32,000 nt of DNA from Acaryochloris marina MBIC11017 (GCF_000018105.1 NC_009933.1:60001-92000), one strand, 5' to 3'. Positions 3,681 to 27,600 are shown, counted from the stretch's first letter. Numbers and translations are program-made. Notes: generated by a model from the letters alone, not told the origin.

Positions 3681-3685
3681 GCATA

Positions 3686-10672: not shown

Positions 10673-10724
10673 CTAATTTGCCTAAATCGGTTGGGAGTAA
10701 GCGAGAAAGTAATCCTTTGCATTA

Positions 10725-10925
10725 TCACCCCCAAACCCTACTCACTCGCTCCCGCTCCAACCACACCCCGATCATTTCCTCGATCCGCTCAATAGTCTCC
10801 CCTGGCCGCAGACTTAAAACCTGCAACACGTCGAACGTATTCTCTAACTCCAAAGCGCACTCGAAGCAAAACTCGGGCGTTTCAAATGGAATTCTGATGA
10901 AGGGCTTGCCAATTTTAAGAAATAG
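10725..10925 (-). pseudogene. 3' fragment (copy B) of gene X, uninterrupted and in frame with the upstream pentapeptide gene
   Basis: Translation: LKIGKPFIRIPFETPEFCFECALELENTFDVLQVLSLRPGETIERIEEMIGVWLERERVSRVWG* with no internal stop. The P1 stop (10935-10937) and this stop (10725-10727) are 210 nt apart, that is 70 codons in the same frame. Confidence 0.65.
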
Positions 10926-10934
10926 ATCCTCAGC

Positions 10935-13025
10935 TCAAGAGCCTTCAGCATCTATCCATCCCCTAACTGTCTCAATGGGTATTCCGATGGGTGCAAACAA
11001 AACTTTCAGAGTCTCTACTCCTCCCTCCTTCAAGGCATTCTGTAAACGCTGCCGAAAAGTTGGATCTATCTTTATTCTCTGCTCAACCACAGTCTGTATA
11101 TCTGTCGGATTAGTTTTCTGCAACTGACTCAGTAAATCCTGAATTTCTTTTGCCGATTCAGCCGGGGTTTGTTTTATTTCTGGAGCGTAGTTGTGTTGAG
11201 TGGTTTGTTGAATTCCCTCATTTACTCCAGCCACATTCCCAACTGGAGCATTGATGTTTTGAGTAACTTTATCTTTGTTTGCCATGGTCTGGACCATTGA
11301 AAGTAACTGGGCATTTTTTTGGCGTTCAAAAGCTAGAGATTCTTTTGCTAAATCTAATGTTGCACCTTGGAGCTTCATTTTCTCAATAAATTGTTCTTCA
11401 AGAACCTTTAGTTGTTTACCATATAACTCTTTAGCTTTAGTTTCTATCGCACTCTTGTTAGCCTCAGGTGGTGCCTCCAGTCGAACAACAAAGGCTGCGC
11501 CTTTCTTTTCAATAGCTTGAATGCCAACCTCATATTCATTGAACTTGGATCGGAGTAGCTGAAAAGACTGAAAAAAGGCTTGCCAGTCAATACCATCAAC
11601 AAAAATAAGATCAATCGTTTCAAGAGACTTCTGGACTAAAGCAACAAATTCACCTGGGCAGAAGTTTCCTTGGAAGGGGCGACGTTCTTCTTGATTTACT
11701 TTGAGATAGATGTAATCACACACCACACCTTCAAAGCCAGTCTTAGAATTAATACTCCAATCCTGAATACAAGCCCCTGTCAATATTGCATTTTGAAGTT
11801 TGCTGCCCAGGAAATTTGCTCGGTAAAGATTTGAGTTTCTAAGGTTAACACCACTGAGGTTAGCATCATTAAGGTCGGTACCACTGAGGTCTTTTCCTTC
11901 CCCACCTTTATTTACCAATTCGTGAACCAACTTCCATTTAGCGTCAATCTTTGTTTCAGCAGAAATTTTGGTATTCCTGAGGTCGGCACCACTGAGGTCG
12001 GCATCACTGAGGTTGGCATCACTGAGGTCGGCACCACTGAGGTCGGCATCACTGAGGTCGGCACCACTGAGGTCGGCACCACTGAGGTCGGTACCACTGA
12101 GATCTTTTCCTTCCCCACCTTTATTTACCAATTCGTGAACCAACTTCCATTTAGCGTCAATCTTTGTTTCAGCAGAAATTTTGGTATTCCTGAGGTCGGC
12201 ATCACTGAGGTCGGCATCACTGAGGTCGGTACCACTGAGGTTGGTATCACTGAGGTCGGTACCACTGAGGTCGGCATCACTGAGGTCGGCACCACTGAGG
12301 TTGGCATCACTGAGGTCGGTACCACTGAGGTTGGCATCACTGAGGTCGGTACCACTGAGGTTGGCATCACTGAGGTCGGTACTACTGAGGTCTTTTCCTT
12401 CCCCACCTTTATTTACCAATTCGTGAACCAACTTCCATTTAGCGTCAATCTTTGTTTCAGCAGAAATTTTGGTATTCCTGAGGTTGGTATTCCTGAGGTC
12501 GGCATCACTGAGGTCGGCATCACTGAGGTCGGCACCACTGAGGTCGGCATCACTGAGGTCGGCATCACTGAGGTTGGCACCACTGAGGTCGGTACCACTG
12601 AGGTCTTTTCCTTCCCCACCTTTATTTACCAATTCGTGAACCAACTTCCATTTAGCATCAATCTTTGTTGCAGCAGAAATTTTGGTATTCCTGAGGTCGG
12701 CACCACTGAGGTCGGCATCACTGAGGTTGGCACCATTGAGGGCGGCACCAATGAGGGCGGCACCAATGAGGGCGGCACCAATGAGGGTAGCACCCCTGAG
12801 GTCGGCATAAATGAGGGTAGCACCCCTGAGGTCGGCATAAGTGAGGTTGGCATCCCAGAGGTTGGCACCACTGAGGGTAGCACCCCCGAGGTCGGCACCA
12901 CTGAGGTTGGCACCCCCGAGGTCGGCACCCCAGAGGTATATAGACTCACCTGTATTCTTTTCTCTCCATTGATTCCAAGCCTCAGCACCCTGCTTCAATA
13001 AATCAACTTGTTCTTGATTAGCCAT
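10935..13025 (-). CDS. Pentapeptide-repeat protein P1 with four-fold higher-order repeats and a conserved post-repeat domain
   Basis: N-cap MANQEQVDLLKQGAEAWNQWREKN (ATG 13025; GTG 13028 also possible). Long runs of A(D/N)LS(D/G) units are interrupted four times by RNTKISAETKIDAKWKLVHELVNKGGEGKDL. The shared domain follows: GACIQDWSIN...VVCDYIYL...ERRP...PGEFVALVQKSLETIDLIFVDGIDWQAFFQSFQLLRSKF...IQAIEKKGAAFVVRLE. After it come a coiled coil and a tail ending APIGIPIETVRGWIDAEGS. Confidence 0.9.
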   Translation of the reverse strand: MANQEQVDLLKQGAEAWNQWREKNTGESIYLWGADLGGANLSGADLGGATLSGANLWDANLTYADLRGATLIYADLRGATLIGAALIGAALIGAALNGANLSDADLSGADLRNTKISAATKIDAKWKLVHELVNKGGEGKDLSGTDLSGANLSDADLSDADLSGADLSDADLSDADLRNTNLRNTKISAETKIDAKWKLVHELVNKGGEGKDLSSTDLSDANLSGTDLSDANLSGTDLSDANLSGADLSDADLSGTDLSDTNLSGTDLSDADLSDADLRNTKISAETKIDAKWKLVHELVNKGGEGKDLSGTDLSGADLSGADLSDADLSGADLSDANLSDADLSGADLRNTKISAETKIDAKWKLVHELVNKGGEGKDLSGTDLNDANLSGVNLRNSNLYRANFLGSKLQNAILTGACIQDWSINSKTGFEGVVCDYIYLKVNQEERRPFQGNFCPGEFVALVQKSLETIDLIFVDGIDWQAFFQSFQLLRSKFNEYEVGIQAIEKKGAAFVVRLEAPPEANKSAIETKAKELYGKQLKVLEEQFIEKMKLQGATLDLAKESLAFERQKNAQLLSMVQTMANKDKVTQNINAPVGNVAGVNEGIQQTTQHNYAPEIKQTPAESAKEIQDLLSQLQKTNPTDIQTVVEQRIKIDPTFRQRLQNALKEGGVETLKVLFAPIGIPIETVRGWIDAEGS
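11891..12697. repeat. Intragenic higher-order repeat: four 93-nt linker modules separating blocks of 15-nt pentapeptide units
   Basis: The 93-nt module cttttccttccccacctttatttaccaattcgtgaaccaacttccatttagcgtcaatctttgtttcagcagaaattttggtattcctgaggt is identical at 11891-11983, 12104-12196 and 12392-12484. At 12605-12697 it carries 2 substitutions. The intervening blocks are exactly 120, 195 and 120 nt (8, 13 and 8 units of 15 nt). Confidence 0.95.
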
Positions 13026-13138
13026 CACACTCTCAAGACATTCCTGGATCAGTCAATACCACTCAGCTCATTTACCAAACTGATGAATGATACCCACATA
13101 TTCTGAATTGTACTAGCCCCAAAAAGATAGAATCCTGG

Positions 13139-13645
13139 TTAGAAAGTCAATGATTTATGAGCTGATCCATCATCTCCACCCAAAATCACCCCAGATTTCC
13201 CCTCGATTCCATCATCACCCCTCTCTTTCTGCCCGATTTCCTGATCATTTCCACAACCAAACTCATCGTTTTCAGTTCGCTTTTCCATTTCTGTAATTAG
13301 ATCACTGTCTTTCTTACAGATTTCACAACTTGGTCTATTCTTCTCCAATCGTTGATTCCATTTCGCCTGAAACGCCTTCAGCATCTGGTCTTTGTACGCT
13401 TCATTACCTGAATAGCGAATCACATATAGACTCACGGATTCCTCACTGCCCACCTTGACCAATTCATGGGCCACTCGCTTAACCAACTTGTTGACAATGG
13501 CAACGGCACTCTGACCTTCACAAACCACATTACGGAAGTGTCGATAAATCTGATAGCGATATTCCAATGCCTTCACCTTGATGTCTTCCAACCGCTGATC
13601 GGCCTCCGACATCACCATGATTTCCATCCGCATCCGGGCCTCCAC
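13139..13645 (-). CDS. Free-standing paralog of the Rep C-terminal domain (intact ORF; may be a gene remnant)
   Basis: The 168-aa ORF MEARMRMEIMVMSEADQRLEDIKVKALEYRYQIYRHFRNV...VGSEESVSLYVIRYSGNEAYKDQMLKAFQAKW aligns residue for residue with the last ~165 aa of the 24679-28434 Rep. Nucleotides are identical at 13611-13642 and 25121-25152. Homology stops at about 13653 / 25163. Confidence 0.6.
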   Translation of the reverse strand: MEARMRMEIMVMSEADQRLEDIKVKALEYRYQIYRHFRNVVCEGQSAVAIVNKLVKRVAHELVKVGSEESVSLYVIRYSGNEAYKDQMLKAFQAKWNQRLEKNRPSCEICKKDSDLITEMEKRTENDEFGCGNDQEIGQKERGDDGIEGKSGVILGGDDGSAHKSLTF

Positions 13646-13986
13646 CTGCTCATTCAGAAACCTAACATTGCTCTGTCATTGGAAAGCTAACGTAAAGTAT
13701 CACCACTGAACTGCTACTTCAAAATCATCAATAAGCCTAAAAATCACCTACTGCGCTGCAAGCAGACAGGGTACGGAATACTATTTCCTTCAAAACCGTA
13801 GATTTGGATTGGAATCCCATTTATTCACTTGAAACGGCGGGAAATCTCCCCCCCCCACTAGATTAAAAAATAGTGCCTAACTTTTGTACTTAGCCATTAT
13901 GTTGGCAATACTCTTCCCCGCAATTTCGCAACCTTCAGATAAACAAAGCTATCATCATGAAGAAATCAGGATAATCAATATCAACA

Positions 13987-16900
13987 ATGAAATCTATCAA
14001 GGGATTTTGGCTTTTTCTGGACACTGCTATAAAAGATATCCCTTGGGGAGATGTAGCCCTGCACGGTATTGAAGCCATGAAGGCGTTGCCGGATGCTTCA
14101 AAAGCTTGGCAAGACAATGCTGATAAGATTCAACAGCTTGCCCCTTTTGTGCAAAAGGCAGAACCACTGATCAAAGCCCTTGATATTCCAGTGACAAAGT
14201 TGGTTATTTCTGGGCTGCCATTTATATCTGCTGGCATTAACTTGCTGAAAATTGGGATTGAACTGGCAAAAGTGGAGTCAACTTTCGAAAGTTCAGTCAC
14301 AATTGTCGCCCAACTCGCCTATCTCCAGAGTTTAGAAATAGTGTTGGTGAAACAGGATGAGACGATCAAAGCGAAACTAGCGCAGCTATCTCTCAAGGAT
14401 GTTGTCGAGAAACAGCTTTCCAAATTTTATAGAACGGAACTGACCCTCACTGAGGCAAAGACAGCCACTACCCAGTTTCGAGAGTCCATATTAGTCGAGA
14501 AGTTTGGAGAAGCACTGACAGAGCAGTTGCAACAGGTCGGGCTGGACAACAGCCAAACTCAGCGATTAACAGATCAGGTTATTTGGGGGAGTCATCGGTA
14601 TTTCCATCTGGCGATTGTAGAAGCTGGGGAGAGTGTAGAACCTCTAGCAGAGTTTTACCGTACTGGTGGACAGCAAGAGCTAGAACGCTACACAGCTATC
14701 GACGAGTATTTAGAAACGCAGATTAAACCAACACCGCTGGAGCAAGTCTTTGATGAGAGTGCCCCCAGAGTAAGCTTTCAAGATATCTACGTACAACTGG
14801 AGGTGCAGCCTTTAACTCAAGAAGGTGAGGTAAAACGTGGTGCTAGCCCCATCTGTAGTCATGAATGGACCAAGAAAATCCTAGAACAGTCAGCCAACCA
14901 GACCCGCAAAGTGATGTTTATGGAAGGTGAAGCAGGTCGGGGTAAATCCGTATTTTGTCGCATGATTGCTGATTGGGTGTATTCGGAATTTGGAGATGCT
15001 TTTATTCCCTTGCGGATTAGGCTGCGAGACTTACGGGCACTAGCTAACAACTTAACTGAAACTCTAGAAGACTGCCCAGATTTAGAGCAGGCAAAATTCG
15101 TGCGTGGGGAATCAAACTGGTTAGCGGATAAAAACACGCGATTTTTCCTTATTTTGGATGGCTTTGACGAAATACTGCTTGAAGGGCGTACCAGCGGAGG
15201 TTTAAAAGAGTTTTTGCAGCAGGTGACAGATTTTCAGCGACGTAGCCATCATCAGTTGTTAGTAACAGGACGACCCTTAGCACTGCAAGGAATCGATAGA
15301 CTTATCACCCAAAACAAGGACTTGGAACGGGTGCGTCTGAAACCTATGAGTGATGAGTTGAGAGAACTCTGGCTGATAAAATGGCAAGCCATATTTGGAA
15401 CGAATCAGGTCAATCAATTCCGGCAGTTTCTGACGGCCTGTCCTCAAGACATCACTGATACTCTGGCCCGTGAGCCGCTACTGCTCTATTTGCTGGCTCG
15501 GCTGAATCGCGAGGGGCATCTGACCCAAGAGATGTTTGCAGATACACAAAAGGGCTTCAATAGCGAAACTCAGGCCAAGCTGCAGATTTATCGGGAATCG
15601 GTGAATTGGGTACTAAAGAAACAGCGGCAGGATGAGAACTTACGGCTTTCAGGGTTGGACACCTTGGATGATTTACGGGAGGTATTACAGGAAGCAGCTT
15701 TGTGTGTGGTGCAGTCGGGGAATGAAACGGCTCGACTGGAAATGGTGAAACAGCGGTTTAAAGGCAGCAGCAACCCTGTAGCTGACTTGCTGAAGCAAGC
15801 CCAAGAAACCACTGGGCAATCAGAAAATAAGGCACTAAACAACTTACTGACAACCTTTTATCTAAAGCCGGGCGAAAAAGATAAACGAGGTTCAGTGGAA
15901 TTTGCCCACAAGAGCTTTGGGGAATATTTATTCGCAGAGCGATTACTGATCGCCTTTGAAACGTGGACAGAGTTAGATAAACGAAAACGGTTCCGGCTAG
16001 ATGAACGATCACTGAATGAGCAAATTTACGATGTATTTGGCCATGGCGGCCTGACTCAAGAAATTGTCGCCTACGTGATGGTGCTACTTGAGGAGGGTAA
16101 CATTGACCGTTTACAGCTGTTCACACGACTCAGTCATTTCTATGACCGCTGGTGCCAAAATGAGTTTTTAGATGCTCTTCCACATGAGAATATTCCGCAG
16201 AAGAAAATGATACAACTTCTGGATCAGGATATCACTACCGGATTAAAGCAAGTGGATGTATTTACGGGCTTAAATGCGATGATTTTTCTGTTTAGGCTAC
16301 ATGCATCTACCCAGCCCAAGGACTATCCCTATCTTGGAGACGATACATCTCAACACGAAATCTATTTTTACCCCTGTGGTAAACCTGAGCCTGAAGGCTT
16401 GCAAGCAGACCGTCTTCTCAAAATCATTCGTTACGCAGATTCACTCGTACCAGGGATTTTTAACGAAACCGTTGGACCTTACCTAAGCAGCGCCAACCTC
16501 AGCAGCGCCAACCTCAGCTTCGCCGACCTCAGCAGCGCCAACCTCAGCTTCGCCGACCTCAGCTTCGCCGACCTTACCAACACCGACCTCCTCAGCGCCA
16601 ACCTCAACGGCGCCGACCTCCGCAACGCCAATCTCAACAACGCTGACCTTCGCAGCGCCGACCTCAACAGCGCCAACCTCAACGGCGCCGACCTCCGCGA
16701 TGCCAATCTCAACAGCGCTAACCTCAGCAGCGCCAACCTCAGCTTCGCCGACCTCAGCTTTGCCAACCTCAGCTTTGCCAACCTCAGCTTCGCCGACCTC
16801 AGCAGCTCCAACCTCAGCCGAGCCCTGGTTTCTGACTTAACACAGATCGATTATGAGTGGCTATCAGGTTCTAATGATGAATATCTTATTGTTCTTAGAA

Positions 16901-17475
16901 CTCATCAAAACTTTAATATAAGAATTTTCGATTCAGATATAAACTCTAATGATCTTTCCCAACTTCAAACTGCATTAGATGAATTTACTAAAATCTCTGG
17001 GTATGAAGAAGTAACTGTAACACGAGAAGAATTAGGTTCCTTCTTCAAGGATATTCGATATAAAATCGCCCGATTGTTTTATGATGATGTGCAAAGAGAA
17101 GCAATAGAAACAGGACAAGAGCTTTATCGCACAGGTAAAGCGAATATCTTAACTCGATTGGAGTGGAAAGGAGTTGAATCTTCCAAACAACTGGCTGAAG
17201 CAACAGCTGCATTATTGGAAAATGTTGATAAATTCGACAATGTTGTTTTACAAGCTGGGAAAATTATCGTAGTAAAAATTACTGATGAAAATGGGAAATC
17301 AACCCTTTGTTCAAGAACCGTTTCTTCAGAGATTAAATTCCTACTAGAACGAACCCCTCAACTGATAGATAATCCCCAAGCTTTATACGATTTGCTGACT
17401 AAGAACCCAGAACAACTACAACCAAGCATTGAGAATCGGACGACTTTACCAGCTCCCTCCGAACCCCTCAAGTAA
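13987..17475 (+). CDS. NACHT-family STAND NTPase with an N-terminal helical domain, a pentapeptide-repeat array and an extra C-terminal domain
   Basis: Walker [13 protein letters not shown] (GEAGRGKS at nt 14926-14949). Walker [12 protein letters not shown] (about 15143-15172). LLVTGRP (sensor-1-like) and [12 protein letters not shown], all as in NACHT modules. The ~300-aa N-terminal helical region has a hydrophobic stretch, [23 protein letters not shown]. There are 22 pentapeptide units at 16486-16815, then about 215 aa of AT-rich unique sequence. Confidence 0.85.
16486..16815 (+). repeat. 22 in-register 15-nt units encoding the NACHT pentapeptide array
   Basis: agcagcgccaacctc and agcttcgccgacctc type units run from 16486 to 16815 (330 nt) with no indel. 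Several units are identical, for example 16486-16500, 16501-16515 and 16531-16545. The segment is markedly more GC-rich than the flanking coding sequence. Confidence 0.95.
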
Positions 17476-17484
17476 CTCCCGTGA

Positions 17485-18123
17485 TCACCCCCAGGACATG
17501 GCCACTCGCTCCCGATCCAACCACACCCCGATCATCTCCTCGATCCGCTCCATAGTTTCCCCTGGCCGCAGCTTGATTACCTGCAACACATCGAACGTGT
17601 CCTCCAACTCCAAGGCGCACTCATAGCAAAACTCGGGCGTTTCAAACGGAATTGTGATGAATGGCTTACCAGTAATTTCCACGGTGATCCAGAATTTCCC
17701 TGAATTGCTTATGGAAACGGTCAGATATTCAAGCTGACCCTTCTGCTTGGTCTGCTGAACCAGATTCTTTTGTCTGCGCTCAAGTGCGTGAAACTTAGAC
17801 TCAAATGCTCTGGAGACTCTGGGGGGTCTGACTCTTCCTGGTGTTTCCCGAGCTGTATATCCTCGCTGTGTTCTCCGCACAAAATCGGGTTCTCGGTGAA
17901 TGTGGATAGGGGCTGATTCACGCTTGCGCTCATCTGTACCAACATCTGGAGATGGCTTGCGTCTTACTGGCTGATCATCTTTCCTGGCAATCGTTGGGAA
18001 CGCAGTCTTGTCTGAATATGCAGGGTTTGATTCGATGTTTATTGGGGGTTTCCCAGTCGATGAGATTGTTGGCTTGGGCTTCAGTGAGACAAGTTTGGGG
18101 TTCATACAACTATCCTCTGCCAA
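17485..18123 (-). CDS. Gene X, the only intact copy: low-complexity N-terminus plus a conserved ~95-aa C-terminal domain; function unknown
   Basis: 212-aa ORF (TTG 18123; ATG alternative at 18105). The C-terminal part is FHALERRQKNLVQQTKQKGQLEYLTVSISNSGKFWITVEITGKPFITIPFETPEFCYECALELEDTFDVLQVIKLRPGETMERIEEMIGVWLDRERVAMSWG. That part recurs in decayed form at five other sites. The gene is convergent with the NACHT gene (stops 10 nt apart). Confidence 0.7.
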   Translation of the reverse strand: MAEDSCMNPKLVSLKPKPTISSTGKPPINIESNPAYSDKTAFPTIARKDDQPVRRKPSPDVGTDERKRESAPIHIHREPDFVRRTQRGYTARETPGRVRPPRVSRAFESKFHALERRQKNLVQQTKQKGQLEYLTVSISNSGKFWITVEITGKPFITIPFETPEFCYECALELEDTFDVLQVIKLRPGETMERIEEMIGVWLDRERVAMSWG

Positions 18124-18234
18124 GATAAAATCAGTGTAGCTTCTGGGGATATGCTCTGGTGGATTTCAGGGGAAAGCTTAATTTGGGGGTAGGTGATTTA
18201 CAGTGGGGAAACTAGAGGTAAAGATTATGCTGCG

Positions 18235-19758
18235 ATGACTAACCAAGTGCTAGTTGAATTACTGAAACGCGGTATTGGAGTTTGGAATTCGTGGAGAGAA
18301 GAAAACTTATATGAAAACCTAGACTTTCGAAGAGTTCAACTCAGTGGTTCATATCTCAGTGAAGTTGACTTCAGTCATGCCAATTTTGAAATTGCGTACC
18401 TCAGTAGTGCAAAGCTCAGTTGCGCAAACCTTGAAGGCATCAACCTTAATCGTGCCTACCTTGGTGGTGCCGACCTCTACAGTGCCAACCTTAGAGGAGC
18501 TAATCTCATTCGAGCAAACTTCAATGACGCCCATCTTAAAGAAGCCGACCTGACTAATGCTAATCTCTCTGGTGCCCATCTTAGGGGTGCCAATCTCTTG
18601 AACGCAAACCTAAGCGGTGCCTTACTCAGTCGTGCCAACCTTGAAAACGCTGACCTAAGCTACGCCAACCTCGAAAACGCTGACCTAAGCTACGCCAACC
18701 TCGAAAACGCTGACCTAAGCCACGCCAACCTTAAGAACGCTGACCTAAGCAGTACCCACTTAAAAAGAGTAATTGCCCTGGATACAAGTTTTCTAAAATC
18801 AACATTAACTGGAATCTGCATACAAGACTGGAATATCAACATTAACACGAACTTTGATGATGTTATTTGCGAATACTTTTTTCGTTCATATAATCCTGAC
18901 TTAACCCAACCAAGTAACCGCCATCCACTCAGCAGAAACTTCGATCCCGGTGAATTTGCTATCTTGATTAAAATGTCCTTAGAGACCATAGACTTAATTT
19001 TTGTAGATGGAATTGATTGGCAAGCATTTCTCCAGTCATTTCAAGACTTACGTTCTCAATTTAGTGAACAAGAAATCGCTATACAGGCTATCGAGAAGAA
19101 GGGTACAGCATTTGTCGTTCGCCTGGAGACACGACCTGAAGCTGACAAGAATGCTATTGAAGCTAAAGCAAAGGAGTTATACAGTGGAAAGCTTTTGAGA
19201 ATGGAGCAAAAGTACAAATCTGATTTATTAGCAAAAGAGAGTGAAATAGCTATCTATAAAAAACAAAGCGCAGTTTTACTTGAAATTGTTAAGTTACAGG
19301 CAACAAGACCTATAGCAGTCGAGGCTACAGCCGTGGCAGAGAAAGCAACTAACCAAACTAAAATTAAAGACAGTACTATCGGTGCCATGCACAGCGGAAG
19401 CGGCAACATCACCAACTTTTCTCAGGCTATTGGCAGTAATCTCCATGAAATCACTAAAATAATCAAGAAATTAAAAAAATCGGCAAAAAATATACCTGAA
19501 GAATATCAAGAGGATCTTTCAGAAGATTTTGACGATTTGGTAGATGCTATCAATAACTCTGAAAAGCGAACTGAGAAAAGATTACGAAAACGAATCATGG
19601 CTTTATGGGCTATCGTTTGTGCCATCGCTGTAGGAGTCGCTGGAGCGACTGACTTTAGCAACAATCTTGTCGATTTAGCTCAAAAGTTAAATGTGCCCTT
19701 AACTGTCGAAGTAATAAAACAAAATCCACATGTTCTTCAGGAACCAAATCAACCTTAA
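18235..19758 (+). CDS. Pentapeptide-repeat protein P2 with the conserved post-repeat domain and a C-terminal hydrophobic (TM-like) segment
   Basis: ATG 18235 gives MTNQVLVELLKRGIGVWNSWREEN, which aligns with the paralog N-caps (the track start 18193 is GTG). The shared domain is ICIQDWNIN...VICEYFF...PGEFAILIKMSLETIDLIFVDGIDWQAFLQSFQDLRSQF...IQAIEKKGTAFVVRLE. The tail contains RIMALWAIVCAIAVGVAGATDF. Confidence 0.9.
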   Translation: MTNQVLVELLKRGIGVWNSWREENLYENLDFRRVQLSGSYLSEVDFSHANFEIAYLSSAKLSCANLEGINLNRAYLGGADLYSANLRGANLIRANFNDAHLKEADLTNANLSGAHLRGANLLNANLSGALLSRANLENADLSYANLENADLSYANLENADLSHANLKNADLSSTHLKRVIALDTSFLKSTLTGICIQDWNININTNFDDVICEYFFRSYNPDLTQPSNRHPLSRNFDPGEFAILIKMSLETIDLIFVDGIDWQAFLQSFQDLRSQFSEQEIAIQAIEKKGTAFVVRLETRPEADKNAIEAKAKELYSGKLLRMEQKYKSDLLAKESEIAIYKKQSAVLLEIVKLQATRPIAVEATAVAEKATNQTKIKDSTIGAMHSGSGNITNFSQAIGSNLHEITKIIKKLKKSAKNIPEEYQEDLSEDFDDLVDAINNSEKRTEKRLRKRIMALWAIVCAIAVGVAGATDFSNNLVDLAQKLNVPLTVEVIKQNPHVLQEPNQP

Positions 19759-19837
19759 GTTCAGTACTTGATTTCACTAGCAAGATCCATGAATTTACTG
19801 AAGCTATTGAAAGATACTTCTCTTTACTAGTGCTGAT

Positions 19838-21112
19838 TCAAGCATTACCAGTCAACCAAGCTTTGATTGTCGCTTTGATTACTTTGAGATATCTGTTCTC
19901 CAATACAAATTCCTCTAGGGCCTTTTCTCCACCAGCTTGCATGGCTGAAACAACCCTCTGTTTAAATTCGGGTTTTGTAGCTATATTGACGTACTGAATC
20001 TGATCAGTTTCGCTAGCTGCGGGATTGCTTTGTTCAAGTTGTTGTAAGTATTGCTGTATTTCAGTAGCAACTTCTACTAGCACTTGCTGTTCAGGTGAAG
20101 CATAGTTGTTGACGTTTCCACTACCAGAATGAAGGTTTTCAATCTTTTCAGCGTTTATAGTGGTTTGACTTATAACCTGCTCATTATTCATTTCACCTTC
20201 ATTATGAGCCGCTACATTGCCAACTTGCGCATTGAAGTTTTGAGTGGTTTCCATCGGTTTACCCGCAAGAGTTTTGATAACATCAGACATTTCTCTATAC
20301 ACTCTCAATTCTCCATGAGCTTCACTTAGCTGGAGCTTTGTTTTGTAAAGTTCTTTTTGAACTGACTCTATTGCACCTTTGTTTGCCTCATATGAAGTTT
20401 CCAGACGAACAATAAAAGCATTACCTTTCTTTTCGATGGCTTGTATACCAATTTCCTGACCAACAAACTGGGAGCGGAGTTGTTGAAAAGAATAGAAAAA
20501 GGCTTGCCAGTCAATTCCATCAATAAATATGAGATCTATAGTTTCAAGAGACTTCTGGACTAGAGCAACAAATTCGCCTGGACTGAAATTTCCATTAAGC
20601 GGGCGACGTTCTTGCTGATTTTCTCTAAGATAGATGTAATCACAGACAACATTATCAAAACTTGTATCACCGTTAATTTGCCAGTCTTGAATACAAGCCC
20701 CTGTTAGGTTTGCATACTTGAGATTGCTACTAAGGAAATTGGTTCCGATGAGATTGGTCCTTTTAAGCTTAACTCTGCTGAGATTAGCATGGCCGAGATT
20801 GGCATAACTGAGATTAGCCCCCATAAGAATCGCAGAACTGAGATTGGCATTAACTAGATTTGCACCCCATAGATTAGAAGATGTGAGTTGGGCACAGGTG
20901 AGATCTGCGTTGCTAAAGTTTGCCCCTTTTAGATTAGTTGCACTGAGATTTGTACTAGTGAGTTTGGTGCCACTGAGGTTGACACTCTTTAGATCGGCAC
21001 CACTAAGGTTAGCACCACCTAAGTCAAGCTCCACAGTAGCATTCATTTGCCTCCAAGAATTCCAAACTTTCACATCCCCGATTAATAAATTAAGTAACCC
21101 TTGATCAATCAT
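19838..21112 (-). CDS. Pentapeptide-repeat protein P3 with the conserved post-repeat domain and a distinct tail
   Basis: N-cap MIDQGLLNLLIGDVKVWNSWRQMN, then pentapeptide units. The shared domain is GACIQDWQIN...VVCDYIYL..ERRP..PGEFVALVQKSLETIDLIFIDGIDWQAFFYSFQQLRSQF..IQAIEKKGNAFIVRLE. The tail ends ...RYLKVIKATIKAWLTGNA. Confidence 0.9.
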   Translation of the reverse strand: MIDQGLLNLLIGDVKVWNSWRQMNATVELDLGGANLSGADLKSVNLSGTKLTSTNLSATNLKGANFSNADLTCAQLTSSNLWGANLVNANLSSAILMGANLSYANLGHANLSRVKLKRTNLIGTNFLSSNLKYANLTGACIQDWQINGDTSFDNVVCDYIYLRENQQERRPLNGNFSPGEFVALVQKSLETIDLIFIDGIDWQAFFYSFQQLRSQFVGQEIGIQAIEKKGNAFIVRLETSYEANKGAIESVQKELYKTKLQLSEAHGELRVYREMSDVIKTLAGKPMETTQNFNAQVGNVAAHNEGEMNNEQVISQTTINAEKIENLHSGSGNVNNYASPEQQVLVEVATEIQQYLQQLEQSNPAASETDQIQYVNIATKPEFKQRVVSAMQAGGEKALEEFVLENRYLKVIKATIKAWLTGNA

Positions 21113-21116
21113 CTTA

Positions 21117-21535
21117 TTACCTTAAGAAGTTACTGCTCAGGCTGATGCGCCAGTCTACTTTAGGATTGCTAGCAAAAATAACTCTGAATGCGTTCAGTAA
21201 AGGGATATCTTGCTTTCTCAAGGTTGAAATATAACCGTGAACGCGGCAGAACTGCTGGCCACCCGCCAATGAACGGAAGCAGCCCGATATCTTCTGCTTC
21301 AACTTCATCATGCGGATATCCCGTTCAGCCTGATTGTTATCAAAAGGCACTTGAAAATCATACATAAACGCCAAGACGGCAGCTTGGTGCTTTTGAAGTC
21401 AGTCTAGCAAGTTTTTCGGTGCTCTCTGCTTTGGTTTGCCTCGTTTCTTGGGTGCATTCTCATCGACGGTTGGCATTGGATTCGCCATGATTCCATTGGC
21501 TAACACTTGACGATAACGCTGCTCGTAATAATTCT
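21117..21535 (-). pseudogene. IS66-family transposase remnant (C-terminal part only, with an in-frame stop)
   Basis: Minus-strand translation: [106 protein letters not shown]. This contains the PFDNNxAERxIR...KISGxFRS signature of IS66 TnpC. The in-frame TGA is at 21399-21401. No N-terminal part and no IS ends are present. Confidence 0.75.
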
Positions 21536-21544
21536 GATGACATT

Positions 21545-21739
21545 AGCCCTGAATTTTTTATTGACTCTATTGAAGATCAGCCTGGCTTCTATCAGATAAC
21601 AGCCCAAGGACCAAGACTCGGACCTGGTGAGTCCATCAAAATCGGGCAGTCTGGACAATATCTGGTTTATCAGATGGACAACATCGAATACTACAGTGAG
21701 CCTTCTGTTATGTGTATGGCTGTGTTGCGTAAAGTCTAA
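21545..21739 (+). pseudogene. 5'-truncated paralog of the small gene at 10373-10672
   Basis: 65 in-frame codons: SPEFFIDSIEDQPGFYQITAQGPRLGPGESIKIGQSGQYLVYQMDNIEYYSEPSVMCMAVLRKV*. The region corresponding to the N-terminus is replaced by the IS66 remnant at about 21535-21545. Confidence 0.65.
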
Positions 21740-21787
21740 CTCGTTTTTCTAGAGGGCTTGGGAGTGGAAAAGAATTCCCTGGCTCAT

Positions 21788-22228
21788 TCACCCCCTACAC
21801 TTTGCCACCCGCTCCCGATCCAGGTATTTTCCCACCATCGCCTCAATCCGTTCGATAGTCTCCGGTGGCCGCACCTCGATAACCTGCAAAATCTCAAATG
21901 TGTCCTCTTAGTCCAAAGCGCACTCAAAACAATTCTTAGGGGTTTCAAACGGAATTCTGACGAAGGGGTTACCGCTGCCTTCCACGCCTATCCAAGATTG
22001 CCCAGAAATGCTTAGGGAAACCGTTAGAACCTCAAGCTAACCCTCTAGATTGGTTTGTTGAATGAAGTTCTTTTGCCTGCGTTTAAGGGCATGGAGCCTG
22101 AACGCAAAAGCTCTATAGACTCTGAGGAATGAGATTCTTTCTGATGTGTGCTGAATTAATTGCCCTAGCTTTGTTTGTGTTCTCCAAGTATCCGCGAATA
22201 GTTTCTTTTGTTTAAGCTTATATCTCAC
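21788..22228 (-). pseudogene. Copy D of gene X: full-length and collinear, but with two in-frame nonsense codons
   Basis: The track ORF 22037-22228 (...LHALKRRQKNFIQQTNLEG*) continues in the same frame as LEVLTVSLSISGQSWIGVEGSGNPFVRIPFETPKNCFECALD*EDTFEILQVIEVRPPETIERIEAMVGKYLDRERVAKCRG*. The first stop (TAG, 22037-22039) replaces the Gln of the intact copy. Confidence 0.7.
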
Positions 22229-22802
22229 TGATACCTAGTTGCTTCAACCACTTGACTGGTTTATTTATATATTCTGAAACCGACAACTGCACTTTTACTA
22301 GAGCATTAATATCTTTATCGATCTTGATTAATGTTTTTGTCTCCTCTCGAAGACGCTCGTTAAATTGCGAGTAAACTGCAATAAGCTTAAGTTTATTCAA
22401 AGGATTTGGATCAATTGCCACATTGTACATGTCGTATAATTGTGCTTTAGTACTTTGAATAGCAGTTATATCTGGATAAATTAGCGTAATTTCCTTTAGT
22501 GAATTCTTAGAATTTTTACAATCTCCTAAGCGGTAATGGCACAATGAAAGGCCTAGGTAAGCAACTGCTAGACGAAAATTCTTCTCTAATCCTATTGCTC
22601 GATTGAAGCTTAAGCGTGATTCTCGTAGTAAACTAATTGTCTCTTTTTCCGAAGAGCTTGCTTGATCTAATGAAATCAAGGCAGCGGATAAATCAGCTTT
22701 TGTAAGTCTGTCTAACTTAGCATCCACTGAGTCAATTAATCCAGTTAAAGCAGCTATCGAAGAAGCAACCTTTCCTGCAGAAAATATTAATCCTATATCC
22801 AA
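22218..22802 (-). CDS. Hypothetical protein in an AT-rich insert
   Basis: 194-aa ORF with a TTG start and no early ATG. Its composition is visibly AT-richer than its neighbours. One TPR-like stretch is present (RLAVAYLGLSLCHYRLGDCKNSKNSLKE). Its stop overlaps the GTG start of X copy D by 11 nt. No counterpart exists in the paralogous segment at 10725-10935. Confidence 0.5.
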   Translation of the reverse strand: MDIGLIFSAGKVASSIAALTGLIDSVDAKLDRLTKADLSAALISLDQASSSEKETISLLRESRLSFNRAIGLEKNFRLAVAYLGLSLCHYRLGDCKNSKNSLKEITLIYPDITAIQSTKAQLYDMYNVAIDPNPLNKLKLIAVYSQFNERLREETKTLIKIDKDINALVKVQLSVSEYINKPVKWLKQLGISEI

Positions 22803-22959
22803 TAGTAGTTATCCTCTTTTATTGATTAAAAAAATTTTATTAATTTATCAATATTTCATTTAAACAAAAATATAAATTTAATATTTTCTAGATTTAAAAT
22901 CTAACATCATTCAAATCCCACTATTCAATTTTAAGGAATTGCAGCTCAACTCAAGATTC

Positions 22960-24513
22960 TTAAGCATCTATCCATCCTCTCACCATCTCAATAGGTATTC
23001 CTATCGGCGCAAATAAAACTTTCAGCGTCTCCATTCCTCCTTCCTTCAAAGCGTTCCGTAAACGCTGACGGAAAGTTAGATCTGACTTAATTTTCTGCTC
23101 AACCACAGCCTGAATATCTGTGGGGTTTTCCTCCTGCAACTGAGCCAGTAAATCCTGAATTTCTTTTGCCGATTCAGCCGGGGTTTGTTTTATTTCTGAC
23201 GCATAGTTGTGTTGAGCAGCTTGTTGAATCCCTTCGTTTACTCCAGCTACATTCCCAACTTGAGCATTGAAATTTTGGGTAACTTTATCTCTGTTTGCCA
23301 TAGTCTTGACTATTGAAAGTAACTGAGTGTTTTTTTTGCGTTCAAAAGCTAGAGATTCTTTTACTAAATCTAACGTTAAATCTTGGAGATCCATTTTCTC
23401 TATATATTGCTCTTCAAGAACCTTAAGGTGCTCACCATATAATTCTTTAGCTTTTGTTTCAATTGCACTTTTGTCAGCATCTGGTGATGTTTCCAAGCGA
23501 ATAACAAAGGCTAAGCTTTTCTTTTCGATAGCCTGGATATAAATTTCCTGGTCATTAAACTGGGAGCGGAGTTTCTGGAAAGACTGAGAAAATGCTTCCC
23601 AGTCAAAATTGTCTAAAAAGATCAGATCAATTGTATCCAAGGATTTTTGTATTAGTGCGGCAAACTCACCTGAAACAAATGCCTTATCTGGATCAATAGG
23701 ACGCCTTTCAGTTGGAACTATTTCATTAGTTGCATCATTAAAAATTGACTTTAAAAAAATAAAGTCACATACAACCTCTTCAAAATTAGTCCTATTATTG
23801 ATATTCCAATCTTGAATGCACCCACCGCTTAGGATTGCACGTTGAAAATTTGCACCCAAAGCAACTGTTCTAATCATTTTAGAATTTTTGAGTTCAGCCA
23901 TACTCAAATCTGCATCAATGAAATTCGCATTTAAGAGGACCGCCTCATTGAGATTAGCAGTGCTAAGATTGGCCTTATAAAAATTTGCCTGGGTGAGATT
24001 AGAATTACTGAGGTTTGCACCTATAAGGCTAGCTTTACCAAGATCTGCATTCAGAAGATCTGTATTTTGCAGGTTTGCGTTCTTGAGGTTAGCACCTCGA
24101 AGATCGGCATCTCCGAGATCTAAATTACTGAGGTTTGCCTCTTCAAGATTACCGCCAGATCCAATTAACCACAATTTTTCTACTTGTTTAGGATTAAAGC
24201 CCCTATCCCATGTTGTAAGTTCTGAGTAAAAGGCTTCACTGAGATTTGCTTCTTCAAGTTTAGCGCCACCGAGATTCGCACCACGAAGGTCAGCTCGACA
24301 AAGAATACTTCTATTGAGATTGGCTACGATAAGACTAGCTTTTCTAAGATCGGTGCCGGAAAGATTGGCATCTTCAAGGTTCGCTCGAACAAGGTCAGCC
24401 CCCTTGAGATTCGCACCACTAAGGTCTATTGGTTCATTAGGATTTTCCCATCTCCACTTATTCCAAAGTGAAGTTCCCTGCCTTATTAAATCAACCTGAT
24501 CCTGATTAGCCAT
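22960..24513 (-). CDS. Pentapeptide-repeat protein P4, the duplicate partner of P1
   Basis: N-cap MANQDQVDLIRQGTSLWNKWRWEN, then pentapeptide units. The shared domain is GGCIQDWNIN..VVCDFIFL..ERRP..SGEFAALIQKSLDTIDLIFLDNFDWEAFSQSFQKLRSQF..IQAIEKKSLAFVIRLE. The tail is nearly identical to P1, including an identical 52-nt stretch at 23147-23198 and 11131-11182. Confidence 0.9.
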   Translation of the reverse strand: MANQDQVDLIRQGTSLWNKWRWENPNEPIDLSGANLKGADLVRANLEDANLSGTDLRKASLIVANLNRSILCRADLRGANLGGAKLEEANLSEAFYSELTTWDRGFNPKQVEKLWLIGSGGNLEEANLSNLDLGDADLRGANLKNANLQNTDLLNADLGKASLIGANLSNSNLTQANFYKANLSTANLNEAVLLNANFIDADLSMAELKNSKMIRTVALGANFQRAILSGGCIQDWNINNRTNFEEVVCDFIFLKSIFNDATNEIVPTERRPIDPDKAFVSGEFAALIQKSLDTIDLIFLDNFDWEAFSQSFQKLRSQFNDQEIYIQAIEKKSLAFVIRLETSPDADKSAIETKAKELYGEHLKVLEEQYIEKMDLQDLTLDLVKESLAFERKKNTQLLSIVKTMANRDKVTQNFNAQVGNVAGVNEGIQQAAQHNYASEIKQTPAESAKEIQDLLAQLQEENPTDIQAVVEQKIKSDLTFRQRLRNALKEGGMETLKVLFAPIGIPIEMVRGWIDA

Positions 24514-24678
24514 TATGATTTCTCAAGAAATCCTTTAAGCAGTTTATTGTACTCAAACTTATCACCAATAAATTGTCTGTTCTACTATTACCAAAACATA
24601 GCAGTTCTAACCTCTAGATATATTTTCCAGAGATTTAGTCGAAATCGCTTAATTCGAGGAAAGAAAATCTAGGTCTGA

Positions 24679-27600
24679 TCAATTAACACCCAAAATCACC
24701 TCAGATCCCCCCTCAATTCCATCATTTCCCACCTTCAATTGCCCGATTTCCTGATCATTTCCACCATCAAACTCATCAATATCAGATCGCTTTTCAGTTT
24801 CTGTAATTAGATCACTGTCTTTATTACAAAGTTCACAAACTGGTCTATTTTTCTCTAATCTCTGATCCCATTTCGCCTGAAACGCTTTCAGCATCTGGTC
24901 TTTGTACACTTCATTGCCCGAATATCGAATCACATAGAGACTCACGGATTCCTCACTGCCCACCTTCACCAACTCATGGGCGACTCGCTTGATCAGCTTA
25001 TTGACGATAGCTACGGCACTTTGCCCATCACTGATGACATTCCGAAAATGGCGGTAAATCTGATATCGATATTCCAACGCCTTCACTTTGATGTCTTCTA
25101 ATCGCTGGTCCCCCTCCGTCATCACCATGATTTCCATCCGCATCCGGGCCTCAACCTGCTCATAGCGGGCCTGAGTAAACGCCTGAGACTGCTGCTCAAT
25201 GGCTTCCACTAAACCTTGCTTTTGGTACTTAAGAGCCTGCTTTTGCTGCTCCAACTGCTCCAGCTCCCCCTTCAGCTTTGCCTTCCTGGGATGGGCCTTT
25301 CTGCCCAAAGCCGTCAACTTCGCTTGGATGGCCTTCTGCTCCTGAATGACTTCCCTGATCTGCCCAGCCAGTCCCTTGGCTTCCAATCTCAAAGACTGTC
25401 GTTGTCTTTGCACCTGGCGACCCTTTTCCAACGCTTTGTCATACGCCTCATAATCAGCGCTGGTGACGTTGTAGGTATCCACTAAATCAAATACCCCCAA
25501 GTCACGAAGTAACTGTACCTGGATGCGATTATTGGTTAACCGATGAGTGAGAACGAACTGACTATTGAGCTGTTTCATAAAATTCCTCCGGTCTAATTCC
25601 TCAGCAACTTCAGGGTGATACGACATCCAATGCAACTTCGTGGCACTCTTTAAGCGTCCTCGATGCTCAACACAGACTTGATGAATAAACTCATCCGTTA
25701 GGTCCACACCGGGTAACTCATCTTGTAATAAGACTTTCTTGGCATCCAACGTATCTTTATAGGTGGCAGAAGAACTCCCCATCACTCGGATGGCCTGCTC
25801 CACCGTGAACCGCTCCCCGTCAGCCGTCCCCAGCATTACCGCCGTTTCCACCTCCATCTGCTTCCGCACTTTACTGAAGGACTCGACGATATCGGCATTG
25901 CGTTCACTCAGCTCCTCCATCTCAATCGGATGCCCATGATCTGCCAGCAACAAGGTCAGGGACTCTCTTAGAGCTAACAGTGAGGCAATTGAGCGGGTCT
26001 GATATCGAGCAAAACTGACGTTGTGACAGTTGTTGGGGTTCTGCTGGTATGCCTTTAGTGCTGCCAACTGCTGAGCTGTTTCCGGTGACTGGTCATGGAT
26101 GAGCTGCTGTTCTAAATCAATGGACGCAGCCACATCTTGTCCATACTTGGACTGCAGCATGATGACCTGTTCCACAGACTTAATCGAAGGAATATCTGGG
26201 ATATGCGCCTTCCTGGTTACATAGATTTCACGAGTGACCTTTGCTCGATATCTCCAGAGCTGCTGATAGACACTGCGGGCATGATTGGATGAGGCGTAGC
26301 AAAACACTCGACTGAAATAGGGAATCAATCTCGGTTCATCAATGCTGACCCCACTCTCAGCGGTGGGACTGAGGAACAATGCCGTGGGTTGATACTCTTT
26401 GACAAACTCAGTGGGATTGGCCTGGAATATCTTATTCTCAGTGCGCTCCGATGTCTTGCGGTCATGGCGCAGAATACCTTTGGCAAACTCCGGGTTCATG
26501 TCTGCAATCATCCGCTCCAGCTTCTCAAGGAATTCCTGAGAAGTGGCAACAACAATAAACCGCTCATCGCAGGCCACGGCATTGAGGATTCTCTCTAGAA
26601 ACTGAGAGGTCTGACCAGAAAACACCTTCGTGGGAAAGTTATCATCAGGCTTGTACTCATTGACGACAATCTTGGTGTTGTACTTCCCGCCTGTAATGCC
26701 CTTGATATAGTCAATGGGAATTTGAGACAGGGAATCTTCTAAGAGAATGATATTGCCCCGAGTTTCTAAGACCCGGTTTGCGATCGCATGAAAATGTTCC
26801 AAGATCTGATTCTGCCGATCCCCCAGAGTCTGACCACTGAGAACATGGAACAGAGCAGCATCGGCTTCATCCAAGATGATGCAGCTATCGGGTTCAATAT
26901 CATCGAGTTCAATCTTGAGAAGACTATCAAAACAGAGCAAGATAGACCGCTCAGAGCGAAAGCCCATGCTGATATTGCCCTGGTATTCCTTATTGAGACG
27001 GAATAAGTGAATGAGCTTATAGAGGGTGTTCCCGGCATCATCCTTCTCAGTGAATCGGTCTTCGGTATTAAACAGCAGGTTATTCCGGTAACCGGGCATA
27101 ATCACCTGGCCCTTGACCTGGCTCACCAGGGACTTCAGCATCTCCGTCTTGCCCGTGCCACACATGGAAGCGATGGCGACGACAGACCCCGGATCAATGG
27201 TGCCTAGATCTGAGAGTTCAATGTATCGCTTATTGATAACCGTCGTGGCTTGATCCGATAGGCCATTGAGCTTCAGAAAGAGCTGACCCAGTTCATATTC
27301 CAGACCCAGACTATTGAAGAACCAAGTGGGCTTGAACACAATCTGAGCCAATTCCACTGGGGTGAGTTCATCGATATCGCAGGAATTTTCCTTGTAGGTC
27401 TGTCCCCACCAGGCCACCTCGACGATATAGCCCCATTCTTCCAGCAAGCGAATGACTCGCTGATACTGACGGAAAACATTGAGGTTCCGTACTGCCCCCG
27501 CATCAGGATAGAGGGTGATGATCGGGGATTGCTCAGCATCTTTCGATAAGACGGTCAGAGTTTCTCTCAAAGTGTCAGGAGATGAGGCCCAGAGTCCCCC

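Follow-up and report, generated by a model that had tools for sequence, protein, structure and literature searches.

A cyanobacterial pentapeptide-repeat protein family tied to NACHT/STAND NTPases, its putative amyloid-type coupling motif, and probable orphan members on an Acaryochloris marina plasmid

We analyzed a 32,000-nucleotide stretch of Acaryochloris marina MBIC11017 (NC_009933.1:60001-92000; the whole of this 32-kb stretch is called the window) in which four paralogous pentapeptide-repeat proteins, P1 to P4, lie around the gene of a NACHT protein, one of the signal transduction ATPases with numerous domains (STAND). The evidence supports the P proteins as a real, undescribed family that is non-randomly tied to NACHT/STAND NTPases in cyanobacteria. 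We favor the reading, at a probability of roughly 0.55, that members of this family elsewhere are partners of NOD-like receptor (NLR)-like NTPases, to which they are coupled by a shared motif, likely of the amyloid type, and that P1 to P4 of the window are orphans beside an independent NACHT protein.

The P family is large. A profile search with the domain that follows the repeats (hereafter the P domain) returned 3,018 representative clusters at 50% identity, of which 1,210 scored E <= 1e-30, and 41 cyanobacterial plasmids, many of small size, carry the domain. Its surroundings were studied in three plasmid loci and in the top 80 of 155 loci of species-representative genomes, ranked by similarity to the P3 domain; 85 sequences, the window included, were scanned for the P domain. 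Genes were called with open reading frame (ORF) heuristics made for this analysis. NACHT and AAA_35 genes were detected with profiles seeded from the same data set, with a Pfam cross-check in aggregate and on samples. In each of the first three contexts inspected, a NACHT gene was nearby. The scan yielded 117 ORFs with a P domain, frequently arranged in tandem and spread over 83 of the 85 sequences.

NACHT genes are concentrated beside P genes. Within 1 kb of a P cluster there are 19 of them, a density of 1.26 per 10 kb; at distances of 1-10 kb the density is ~0.08 per 10 kb, ~15-fold lower. Among the immediate neighbors (n = 109), Pfam assigns 17 to NACHT and 8 to AAA_35, and neither family is in the top 25 of the 141 distal genes. 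For NACHT alone the contrast is 17 of 109 adjacent against 2 of 141 distal genes (Fisher p = 2e-5), and for NACHT or AAA_35, by our own profiles, it is 25/109 versus 3/141 (Fisher p = 1.5e-7). A preliminary description of the window had expected P proteins to be enriched beside NACHT/STAND genes and not to be scattered without regard to them; the adjacent-versus-distal contrast and the ~15-fold density show that this enrichment exists.

The geometry of the linked genes is that of operons. Adjacent NTPase genes number 26; 23 of them come immediately after the P gene in the same orientation, separated from it by a median of 14 nt, and not one of the 26 has the reverse orientation. The P family therefore has the adjacent, co-oriented genes with short gaps that mark bacterial amyloid signaling sequence (BASS) pairs. 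All ten P-adjacent NTPases that were sampled are NACHT proteins by Pfam and have no repeat sensor of their own, except one with HEAT repeats. P-adjacent NACHT proteins carry short C-terminal extensions (NCH2) and no pentapeptide array.

P proteins share a short motif with the NTPases encoded beside them. A profile built from the N-termini of P-adjacent NACHT proteins also hits the N-termini of AAA_35 proteins and ~70 P proteins. The motif is ~30 amino acids (aa) long, lies on the C-terminal side of the P protein and starts at residue ~13 of the NTPase. Long P paralogs carry it between coiled coil and tail, as 'FNLQ(G/N)AQF(A/G)GGLVNADTVNAxQIGGNITNY', and short P paralogs terminate in it ('...QIGGNIQNNNA*'), with the downstream gene opening 'MPDSQDPKQVNNNDLRNAQFGGGLINA..VNAGRIGGDIWN'. 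By local alignment, the N-terminus matches the C-terminus of a co-resident P protein in 16 of 26 NACHT proteins, 12 of 27 AAA_35 proteins and 8 of 550 other gene products, at scores of 72-137 versus a shuffled-null maximum of 53. In the window, P1, P3 and P4 have a motif variant of their own (TQNFNAQVGNVAG...; TQNFNAQVGNVAGVNEGIQQ..QHNYA) followed by a four-helix tail, and the motif of P2 is GAMHSGSGNITNF.

Motifs are matched within pairs and not across them. We found four motif types of this kind, two in P-NTPase pairs (Nostocales/Phormidium and locus L068) and two in minimal pairs of a motif-plus-tail protein with an NTPase (Moorena and Coleofasciculus). The L068 type reads 'DRNINTGGGNYNERIE.DY.QGN' in P and NACHT alike. 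The Moorena pair (L096:8001-10518) consists of a 131-aa motif-plus-tail protein and, 22 nt further on, a NACHT gene, and the Coleofasciculus pair (L098:8001-12453) of a 157-aa motif-plus-tail protein and an NB-ARC gene; matching in these two reaches z = 15-16 within a pair and ~0 across pairs. The same module of motif and tail is found on an Abhydrolase_6 protein and on a CHAT protein, and a protein of L059 carries two motif types in tandem.

The genes for stand-alone proteins of 105-200 aa that comprise a motif and a four-helix tail (P0160-P0186) immediately precede NACHT or NB-ARC genes whose products start with the matching motif. The tails of these small proteins are near-identical in type to those of P1 and P4 (...RLRNALKEGGIEALKVLFAPIGIPIEMVRGWIEAE). 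By analogy, the four-helix tail may be a small effector domain like Bell, placed after the motif.

The motif is conserved as protein and has the composition of known amyloid signaling motifs. Of the codons for its identical residues, 63% differ synonymously, so that it is the protein sequence that is conserved; on the same ground we rejected the idea that the motif is shared merely through repeated DNA or gene conversion. G (3.4x), N (2.5x), Q (1.7x) and I (1.5x) are enriched, K (0.09x), P (0.04x) and L (0.6x) are depleted, and V is not enriched (0.99x). Save for V, this agrees with the BASS profile of ~25 aa with G/N/Q/V/I up and K/P/L down. The motif region is also predicted to be disordered (P3 residues 286-337, predicted local distance difference test (pLDDT) < 50). 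A relation of the window-type motif to BASS3, which resembles the receptor-interacting-protein homotypic interaction motif, had been suggested by 'FHGP...QxN(H)F/Y' and was rejected, the profile scoring below shuffled controls. Kinship of the window motif with that of the Coleofasciculus P0164/NB-ARC pair looked plausible by eye and was not supported (z = 0.4-1.4).

These observations suggest a model of how the pairs may work. P proteins whose gene immediately precedes that of an NLR-like NTPase (NACHT or AAA_35) with the same motif in its first ~40 residues, and likewise the minimal motif-plus-tail proteins paired with NACHT and NB-ARC NTPases, would use the motif as a prion-like (amyloid-type) signaling element, as in BASS, Bab/Agp and HET-S/NWD2. 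Once the NTPase is activated and oligomerized, its N-terminal motifs would fold and act as a template that converts the motif of the partner, so that the partner assembles and is switched on. The output could be an abortive-infection or cell-death response. The beta-helix may act as the effector; alternatively, it may serve in trans as a variable sensor for a NACHT protein that has no repeats. The data show linkage of the genes, operon geometry, pair-specific sharing of the motif, its conservation as protein, its BASS-like composition and its predicted disorder; templating, the direction of signaling and the output are what we infer. The window P genes are mosaic paralogs that arose by duplication (together with the 3' end of a replication gene), recombination and repeat expansion, and their cognate NTPase, if any, would be encoded outside the window. 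The NACHT protein of the window would be an independent, all-in-one bacterial NLR, and the region a rearranged plasmid conflict island in which duplication and transposition joined this NLR and four orphan partner-type genes.

Several observations weigh against this reading. NACHT or AAA_35 genes are adjacent in just 27 of the 83 P loci (18 of the 50 with full flanks), or about one-third, and many of the linked loci are from Nostocales and only partly independent, even though no two of them share a species-level genome. The adjacent NACHT protein has no motif in L051, L005, L013, L019, L012, L006 and L002. Long P proteins have an internal motif, followed by ~93 further residues, whereas in classical BASS effectors it is C-terminal. 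A BASS3 profile gives at most 2.8 bits on the real sequences versus 11.4 on shuffles, and the published table of BASS1-10 pairs does not contain the strings FGGG, IGGN and NYNE; for BASS1, 2 and 4-10, the comparison was made by eye and with these strings. A regular-expression search over the fetched ORFs, tblastn on plasmids and a word-indexed protein search that gave two fragments yielded no NTPase that carries the window variant; the coupling of the window's own P proteins is therefore extrapolated from their relatives. The proximity of NACHT and P genes in the window could still reflect another kind of functional link.

The motif might couple P proteins to NTPases without forming amyloid, as a docking peptide or a homotypic adaptor in the spirit of the effector-associated domains (EADs) of Kaur et al. 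(PMC7159879, PMC8195603). Motif sharing and pair specificity fit such docking equally well. It would also suit the internal motif of long P proteins, which is followed by a folded four-helix tail and is unlike the terminal motifs of BASS, and the lack of a BASS3 match and of the hallmark strings in the BASS table. Even so, we regard docking as unlikely. The composition, the ~30-aa length and the predicted disorder fit amyloid signaling motifs, as does placement at the extreme N-terminus of the NTPase and the extreme C-terminus of short P proteins. The alpha/beta-hydrolase and CHAT partners and the tandem motifs of L059 point the same way.

If the favored, amyloid-type reading is widened to the whole family, the P proteins and the minimal motif-plus-tail proteins would form a major new class of prion-like-motif partners of NACHT, NB-ARC and AAA_35 NTPases, with hypervariable arrays that serve as trans-sensors or polymerizing effectors; each pair would be a split NLR joined by amyloid templating. 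This wider proposal is tentative, and we think it somewhat less probable than its negation. Were the motif to work like BASS, a family of thousands of members annotated as 'pentapeptide repeat-containing protein' would gain a function, AAA_35 NTPases and repeat-less NACHT proteins would join the same signaling logic, and new motif families would become available together with a tractable operon on the alpha plasmid of Nostoc PCC 7120 (L004: P-P-NACHT-NACHT). The question bears on an old puzzle, the abundance in cyanobacteria of pentapeptide-repeat proteins with no assigned role. The window itself would be a rearranged plasmid island that brings an all-in-one NLR and four orphan partner-type genes together by chance.

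P genes and NTPase genes occur in more than one kind of neighborhood. A recurrent array in Nostocales has the order P-P-NACHT-AAA_35-(AAA_35+GUN4). At L064:12937-16981, L045:10655-14567 and similar Nostocales loci, a pair of AAA_35 genes follows the P array; the product of the first (~466 aa) starts with the motif, and that of the second (~830-930 aa) is without it and is fused to the tetrapyrrole-binding domain GUN4. These pairs hint at a multi-component monitor of photosynthetic pigment status. A second type is seen in marine Leptolyngbya-like genomes and metagenome-assembled genomes (L006, L011, L012, L015, L030, L024, L052, L078), where two small upstream genes of clusters c13 and c7 are followed by one to three P copies, by genes for proteins of 188 and 266 aa, by a NACHT-NCH2 gene and by a gene for a YdjM-family membrane protein; the NACHT proteins of this neighborhood are without the N-terminal motif. 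The 36-kb plasmid unnamed12 of Tolypothrix sp. PCC 7712 (L003) carries CyRepA1, a P gene, a motif-bearing NACHT gene and two protelomerase genes in inverted duplication, and it may be linear or hairpin-ended although it is recorded as circular.

P1 to P4 have a common plan, and here our four-way alignment bears out the preliminary description: an N-cap, a pentapeptide array, a ~125-aa domain, a coiled coil and a tail. It also reproduces the invariant residues that had been listed for the domain (CIQDW, C, RxP, GEF, TIDLIF, DW, AF, IQAIEKK, AF, RLE). A G/N/Q-rich linker lies between coiled coil and tail in all four. The pentapeptide model PF00805 matches each of them (E = 6e-29 to 5e-85), which makes them pentapeptide-repeat proteins, and the ~125-aa domain has no Pfam, NCBIfam or PADLOC model.

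We built AlphaFold models from deep alignments for full-length P3 and for the domain alone. The P3 model (mean pLDDT 83.8) has a two-helix N-cap at residues 4-23, a beta-helix with pLDDT ~98 and a compact alpha-beta-alpha-beta-beta-alpha domain with pLDDT > 90. Two long helices follow at residues 245-284, then the disordered region at 286-337 and a four-helix C-terminal bundle at 340-422. In Foldseek, the full P3 model retrieves only pentapeptide proteins, among which Np275/276 and HetL rank above Qnr and MfpA. The domain-only model finds generic ferredoxin-, ACT- or KH-like folds in the PDB, with a best E of 0.011 and none at E <= 0.001. Residues resembling D...ExK (ETIDLIF ... IQAIEKK) had prompted the idea of a PD-(D/E)xK nuclease; we dropped it because the confident model has the alpha-beta-alpha-beta-beta-alpha order and only weak ferredoxin/ACT/KH-like matches.

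The C-terminal module of the family is exchangeable: it can be a four-helix tail, a hydrophobic tail or, in P-CHAT fusions where CHAT replaces the tail, a CHAT protease. The tails of the window had been called divergent. This holds for P2, whose tail differs and has a hydrophobic segment, and not for P1, P3 and P4, whose tails are of one homologous four-helix type. The four-helix tail has no Pfam family and no meaningful relative in the PDB. We rejected it as an adaptor common to the NTPases, since a tail profile hits P and partner-type proteins and never an NTPase; the shared element is the motif that precedes the tail. The type B tail of P2 also occurs in L006, L012, L013 and L019. It has weak PADLOC matches (19441-19755; PDC-M14B, E = 5e-6; SduA, E = 4e-4), which were not used as evidence. 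Other family members have clear transmembrane tails (P0032, P0037, P0075).

Turning to the window, ORF calling and translation recover all the ORFs of the preliminary description. P1 (10935-13025, minus strand, 696 aa; Pfam Pentapeptide E = 5e-85) has its N-cap at 12954-13025, its array at 11796-12953, the alpha/beta domain at 11421-11795, the G/N/Q-rich motif at 11184-11264 and the four-helix tail at 10938-11183. The array consists of four super-repeats of ~71-96 aa, each with a non-repeat insert RNTKISAETKIDAKWKLVHELVNKGGEGKDLS. These inserts of ~30 aa are non-pentapeptide (array region 11849-12937) and should break or decorate the beta-helix four times. A spurious ORF of 359 aa runs on the strand opposite P1 at 11922-13001. 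P2 (18235-19758, plus strand, 507 aa) belongs to an ORF that opens with GTG at 18193; the ATG at 18235 gives the family N-terminus. It has its array at 18307-18792, the alpha/beta domain at 18793-19182, a short G/S/N-rich segment at 19372-19440 and the type B tail with a hydrophobic stretch ALWAIVCAIAVGVAGA at 19441-19755.

P3, the shortest paralog (19838-21112, minus strand, 424 aa), has its array at 20720-21040, the alpha/beta domain at 20345-20719, the disordered motif region at 20099-20245 and the four-helix tail at 19841-20098. P4 (22960-24513, minus strand, 517 aa) lies 166 nt downstream of the CyRepA1 gene in the same orientation, with its array at 23845-24441, the alpha/beta domain at 23437-23844, the motif TQNFNAQVGNVAGVNEGIQQAAQHNYA at 23200-23280 and the four-helix tail at 22963-23199.

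The NACHT gene (13987-17475, plus strand) encodes an all-in-one, NLR-like protein of 1162 aa. Its NNH3 helical domain (residues 48-258; 14128-14760; PF22735, E = 2e-50) is followed by a NACHT module (residues 309-466; 14911-15384; PF05729, E = 8e-9, 35.9 bits versus a 26.7 cut-off) with the Walker A sequence GEAGRGKS (14926-14949) and the Walker B sequence FLILDGFDE. A pentapeptide array (residues 829-950; 16471-16836; E = 5e-26) comes next, and then a C-terminal domain of 212 aa (16837-17472) with a marginal HrcA_C-like match (24.2 bits versus a 22.2 cut-off). Pfam thus upholds the earlier view that this NACHT protein uses a pentapeptide array as its C-terminal repeats, an architecture already catalogued by Kibby et al. 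(bioRxiv 10.1101/2022.07.19.500537). PADLOC gives no match for the protein. We also rejected the Rosetta-stone idea that its post-repeat domain is a P domain, a profile search finding no match.

Homologs of this NACHT protein sit in other company. In A. marina S15 and 'Moss Beach', the orthologs, which are 82% identical, have NB-ARC, kinase and CHAT genes as neighbors, and three further, more distant homologs are on Nostoc and Scytonema plasmids. None of these five plasmid loci with NNH3-NACHT-pentapeptide homologs has a P domain within 10 kb. The S15 ortholog (L001:12048-15335) has an unrelated, shorter tail in place of the 212-aa domain, which suggests from sequence that the terminal domain is an exchangeable sensor or effector module. 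This tail swap fits an all-in-one NLR with an exchangeable terminal module.

We do not find support for treating the NACHT gene and the four P genes as one system, which was the central proposal of the preliminary description: an integrated immunity in which diversifying DNA mimics work with the NACHT ATPase or are guarded by it. In favor of the proposal, four P genes flank the NACHT gene on both sides within 7 kb, both gene types carry pentapeptide arrays, and P is enriched beside NACHT at the family level. A motif-independent link is also possible because some P-adjacent NACHT proteins have no shared motif (L051, L005, L013, L019). However, the window NACHT protein shares no motif with any P protein: no gene in the 32-kb window passes the motif test, and the NACHT N-terminus gives z = 0.4-2.4 against the four P motifs. 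It is divergent from P1 across a pseudogene of the replication gene, and gene X, on the opposite strand, lies between it and P2; elsewhere, 26 of 26 adjacent NTPase genes are on the P strand. The adjacency occurs at rearrangement scars (the replication-gene fragment, an IS66 remnant and gene X remnants), the NACHT gene was not co-duplicated with the P genes, and P is absent from all five homolog loci, those of the 82%-identical orthologs included. As to DNA mimicry, P3 has a beta-helix fold like that of Qnr and MfpA, but this is uninformative because all pentapeptide proteins share the fold, and the NCBIfam Qnr and MfpA equivalog models give only 19-89 bits against cut-offs of 240-500. We thus consider an integrated system quite improbable and the mimicry idea without specific support; the window NACHT is probably a mere neighbor of the P genes.

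The four P genes are instead best described as products of duplication and recombination. Segments 10910-11209 and 22926-23225 share 84% DNA identity, and segments 13177-13476 and 24687-24986 share 87%; from these matched pairs we conclude that a unit of the replication-gene 3' end and a P gene was duplicated, leaving a truncated copy beside P1. Co-duplication, as first proposed, therefore applies to the P gene with the replication-gene 3' end and not to the NACHT gene, which is single-copy in the window. P1 and P4 are 51% identical in the repeats (379 versus 192 aa), 66% in the domain and 83% after it, so that the repeat region is indeed the most divergent part, as had been claimed. The P1 domain is nearer to that of P3 (74%) than to that of P4. 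P1 to P4 are thus recombinant mosaics, because the segment identities of P1/P4 and P1/P3 disagree. The P1 array contains tandem super-repeats of 213/288 nt, and since these are 89-92% identical it was probably expanded recently.

A role of P proteins outside NLR conflict, for instance in plasmid maintenance or structure, with NTPases nearby through shared travel on plasmids and islands, is highly improbable: the spread of the domain over cyanobacterial plasmids, the place of P4 directly downstream of a replication gene, the ~2/3 of P loci with no adjacent STAND gene and the recurrence of ParA, integrase and relaxase genes in P flanks speak for it, but hitchhiking leaves the sharp distance decay, the operon geometry and the pair-specific protein-level motif unexplained, ParA-type genes dominate the distal control and not the adjacent set, and other Acaryochloris plasmids keep the CyRepA1 3' end without a P gene.

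The remaining parts of the island mark further rearrangement. The CyRepA1 fragment beside P1 (13139-13645, minus strand) is a truncated pseudogene copy whose protein matches the C-terminus of the 1266-aa replication protein. An IS66 transposase remnant (21117-21374, minus strand), noted earlier as a scar, is confirmed as such: it retains the last ~40 residues of the DDE_Tnp_IS66 domain (E = 1e-10, profile positions 245-283 of 284), and megablast matches it to an annotated IS66 transposase. This remnant and the decayed copies of gene X are the signs of further rearrangement. Gene X (17485-18123, minus strand, 212 aa) is the sole intact copy of a small repeated gene with no match in Pfam, PADLOC or NCBIfam scans, and it has homologs on other Acaryochloris plasmids at 78% nt identity. 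Remnants lie at 10728-10934, ~6483-6830 and ~21787-22087, and the stretches 9990-10069 and 3642-3721 give short matches. All copies are in minus orientation, several of them frameshifted or truncated, and one remnant directly abuts the P1 stop codon. The copies share a conserved C-terminal stretch of ~70 aa (...PFETPEFCYECALELE.TFDVLQV..LRPGET.ERIEEMIGVW). Gene X is probably outside the P/NTPase system. An AT-rich ORF of 194 aa (22218-22802, minus strand) gives a TPR_6 hint below threshold, and it is also called as a gene beside P3 on independent short assemblies.

The replicon is a cyanobacterial plasmid, as its sequence indicates through a CyRepA1-family replication protein of 1266 aa (24679-28479, minus strand; NCBIfam NF042913, 223.7 bits versus a cut-off of 200). 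Megablast of the CyRepA1 region matches Acaryochloris plasmids only, as does megablast of 10000-25000, where the matches are patchy and 78-90% identical. The backbone of the window comprises two ParA genes, a sigma-70 gene and an IS21 istA/istB pair. The ParA-type ATPases belong to a module at 2212-2853, 3784-4704 and 4704-6092 that may be an unusual partition module; the larger ParA, of 462 aa, has an N-terminal extension of ~180 aa with no assigned function and is followed by an ORF of 306 aa that matches no family and contains internal repeats (LTKLKCGLT.SKL twice). An IS21-type element (7121-9416), located between the partition genes and the island, encodes an IstA-like transposase with a Mu-transposase C-terminal domain and an IstB ATPase in overlapping ORFs. 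The sigma-70 family gene (28971-30242; regions 2, 3 and 4) adjoins the CyRepA1 gene and has a C-terminal extension of ~170 aa.

NLR-associated amyloid signaling is established in fungi; the partners known from bacteria are Bell domains and a small number of enzymes. P-NTPase pairs resemble BASS and Bab/Agp in that a G/N/Q-rich, K/P-poor motif of ~25-30 aa is found on the C-terminal side of the partner and again at the very start of the NLR-like NTPase whose gene comes next. BASS motifs show the same bias to G/N/Q-rich, K/P-poor composition, and partners other than Bell that have been reported for BASS pairs include alpha/beta-hydrolase and CHAT (Dyrka et al., bioRxiv 10.1101/2020.01.06.895854). 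In the Bab/Agp pair, amyloid signaling drives phage defense in E. coli (bioRxiv 10.1101/2024.11.07.622273). Very short intergenic gaps, several pair-matched motif families, the presence of the motif on alpha/beta-hydrolase and CHAT partners and a bias to multicellular cyanobacteria are further likenesses to BASS. The differences lie in the partner, which is a pentapeptide beta-helix with a novel alpha/beta domain and a coiled coil, or a bare four-helix tail, and not Bell; in the internal motif of long P forms, ahead of the tail; and in the NTPases, which include AAA_35 and repeat-less NACHT-NCH2 proteins and not NLRs with TPR or WD repeats. The word 'pentapeptide' is absent from the BASS and Bab/Agp papers. 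In the literature searched, 'pentapeptide repeat' and 'amyloid signaling' co-occur only in unrelated contexts, and there is no description of pentapeptide partners, AAA_35 NTPases or these motifs.

There is a parallel outside bacteria with the fungal HET-S/NWD2 and sigma/PP pairs, in which two genes likewise place a motif at the N-terminus of an NLR and in its partner. Fungal pairs have alternative partners that include alpha/beta-hydrolases (SesB-like), and 'all-in-one' and split NLRs coexist per genome, as they do here. The pseudorepeats of HET-s also resemble the tandem motifs of L059. Kingdom, motifs and partner domains all differ from those of HET-S/NWD2, and the likeness rests on the literature and not on a sequence match.

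The NACHT protein of the window is comparable to the bNACHT proteins, which Kibby et al. describe as seldom lying in conserved operons and among whose C-terminal repeat types they count pentapeptides ('Pp'). It has the NNH-type helical domain, the NACHT module and superstructure-forming C-terminal repeats of that group, and by analogy a putative defense role. The conserved P-NACHT-AAA_35 arrays do not figure in that paper. As for the pentapeptide DNA mimics Qnr, MfpA and AlbG, the P proteins share a beta-helix fold with Qnr and MfpA; unlike these two they carry extra domains, and their closest solved relatives are the cyanobacterial Np275/Np276 and HetL rather than gyrase-directed proteins.

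EAD-STAND systems complete the comparison. Their coupling element is a folded death-like domain, unlike the short disordered motif of the P proteins, and Kaur et al. name pentapeptide repeats just as generic superstructure repeats. Both nevertheless place a constant coupling element between an NTPase and variable partners in cyanobacterial conflict loci, and GUN4-fused NTPases occur in the same arrays in both.

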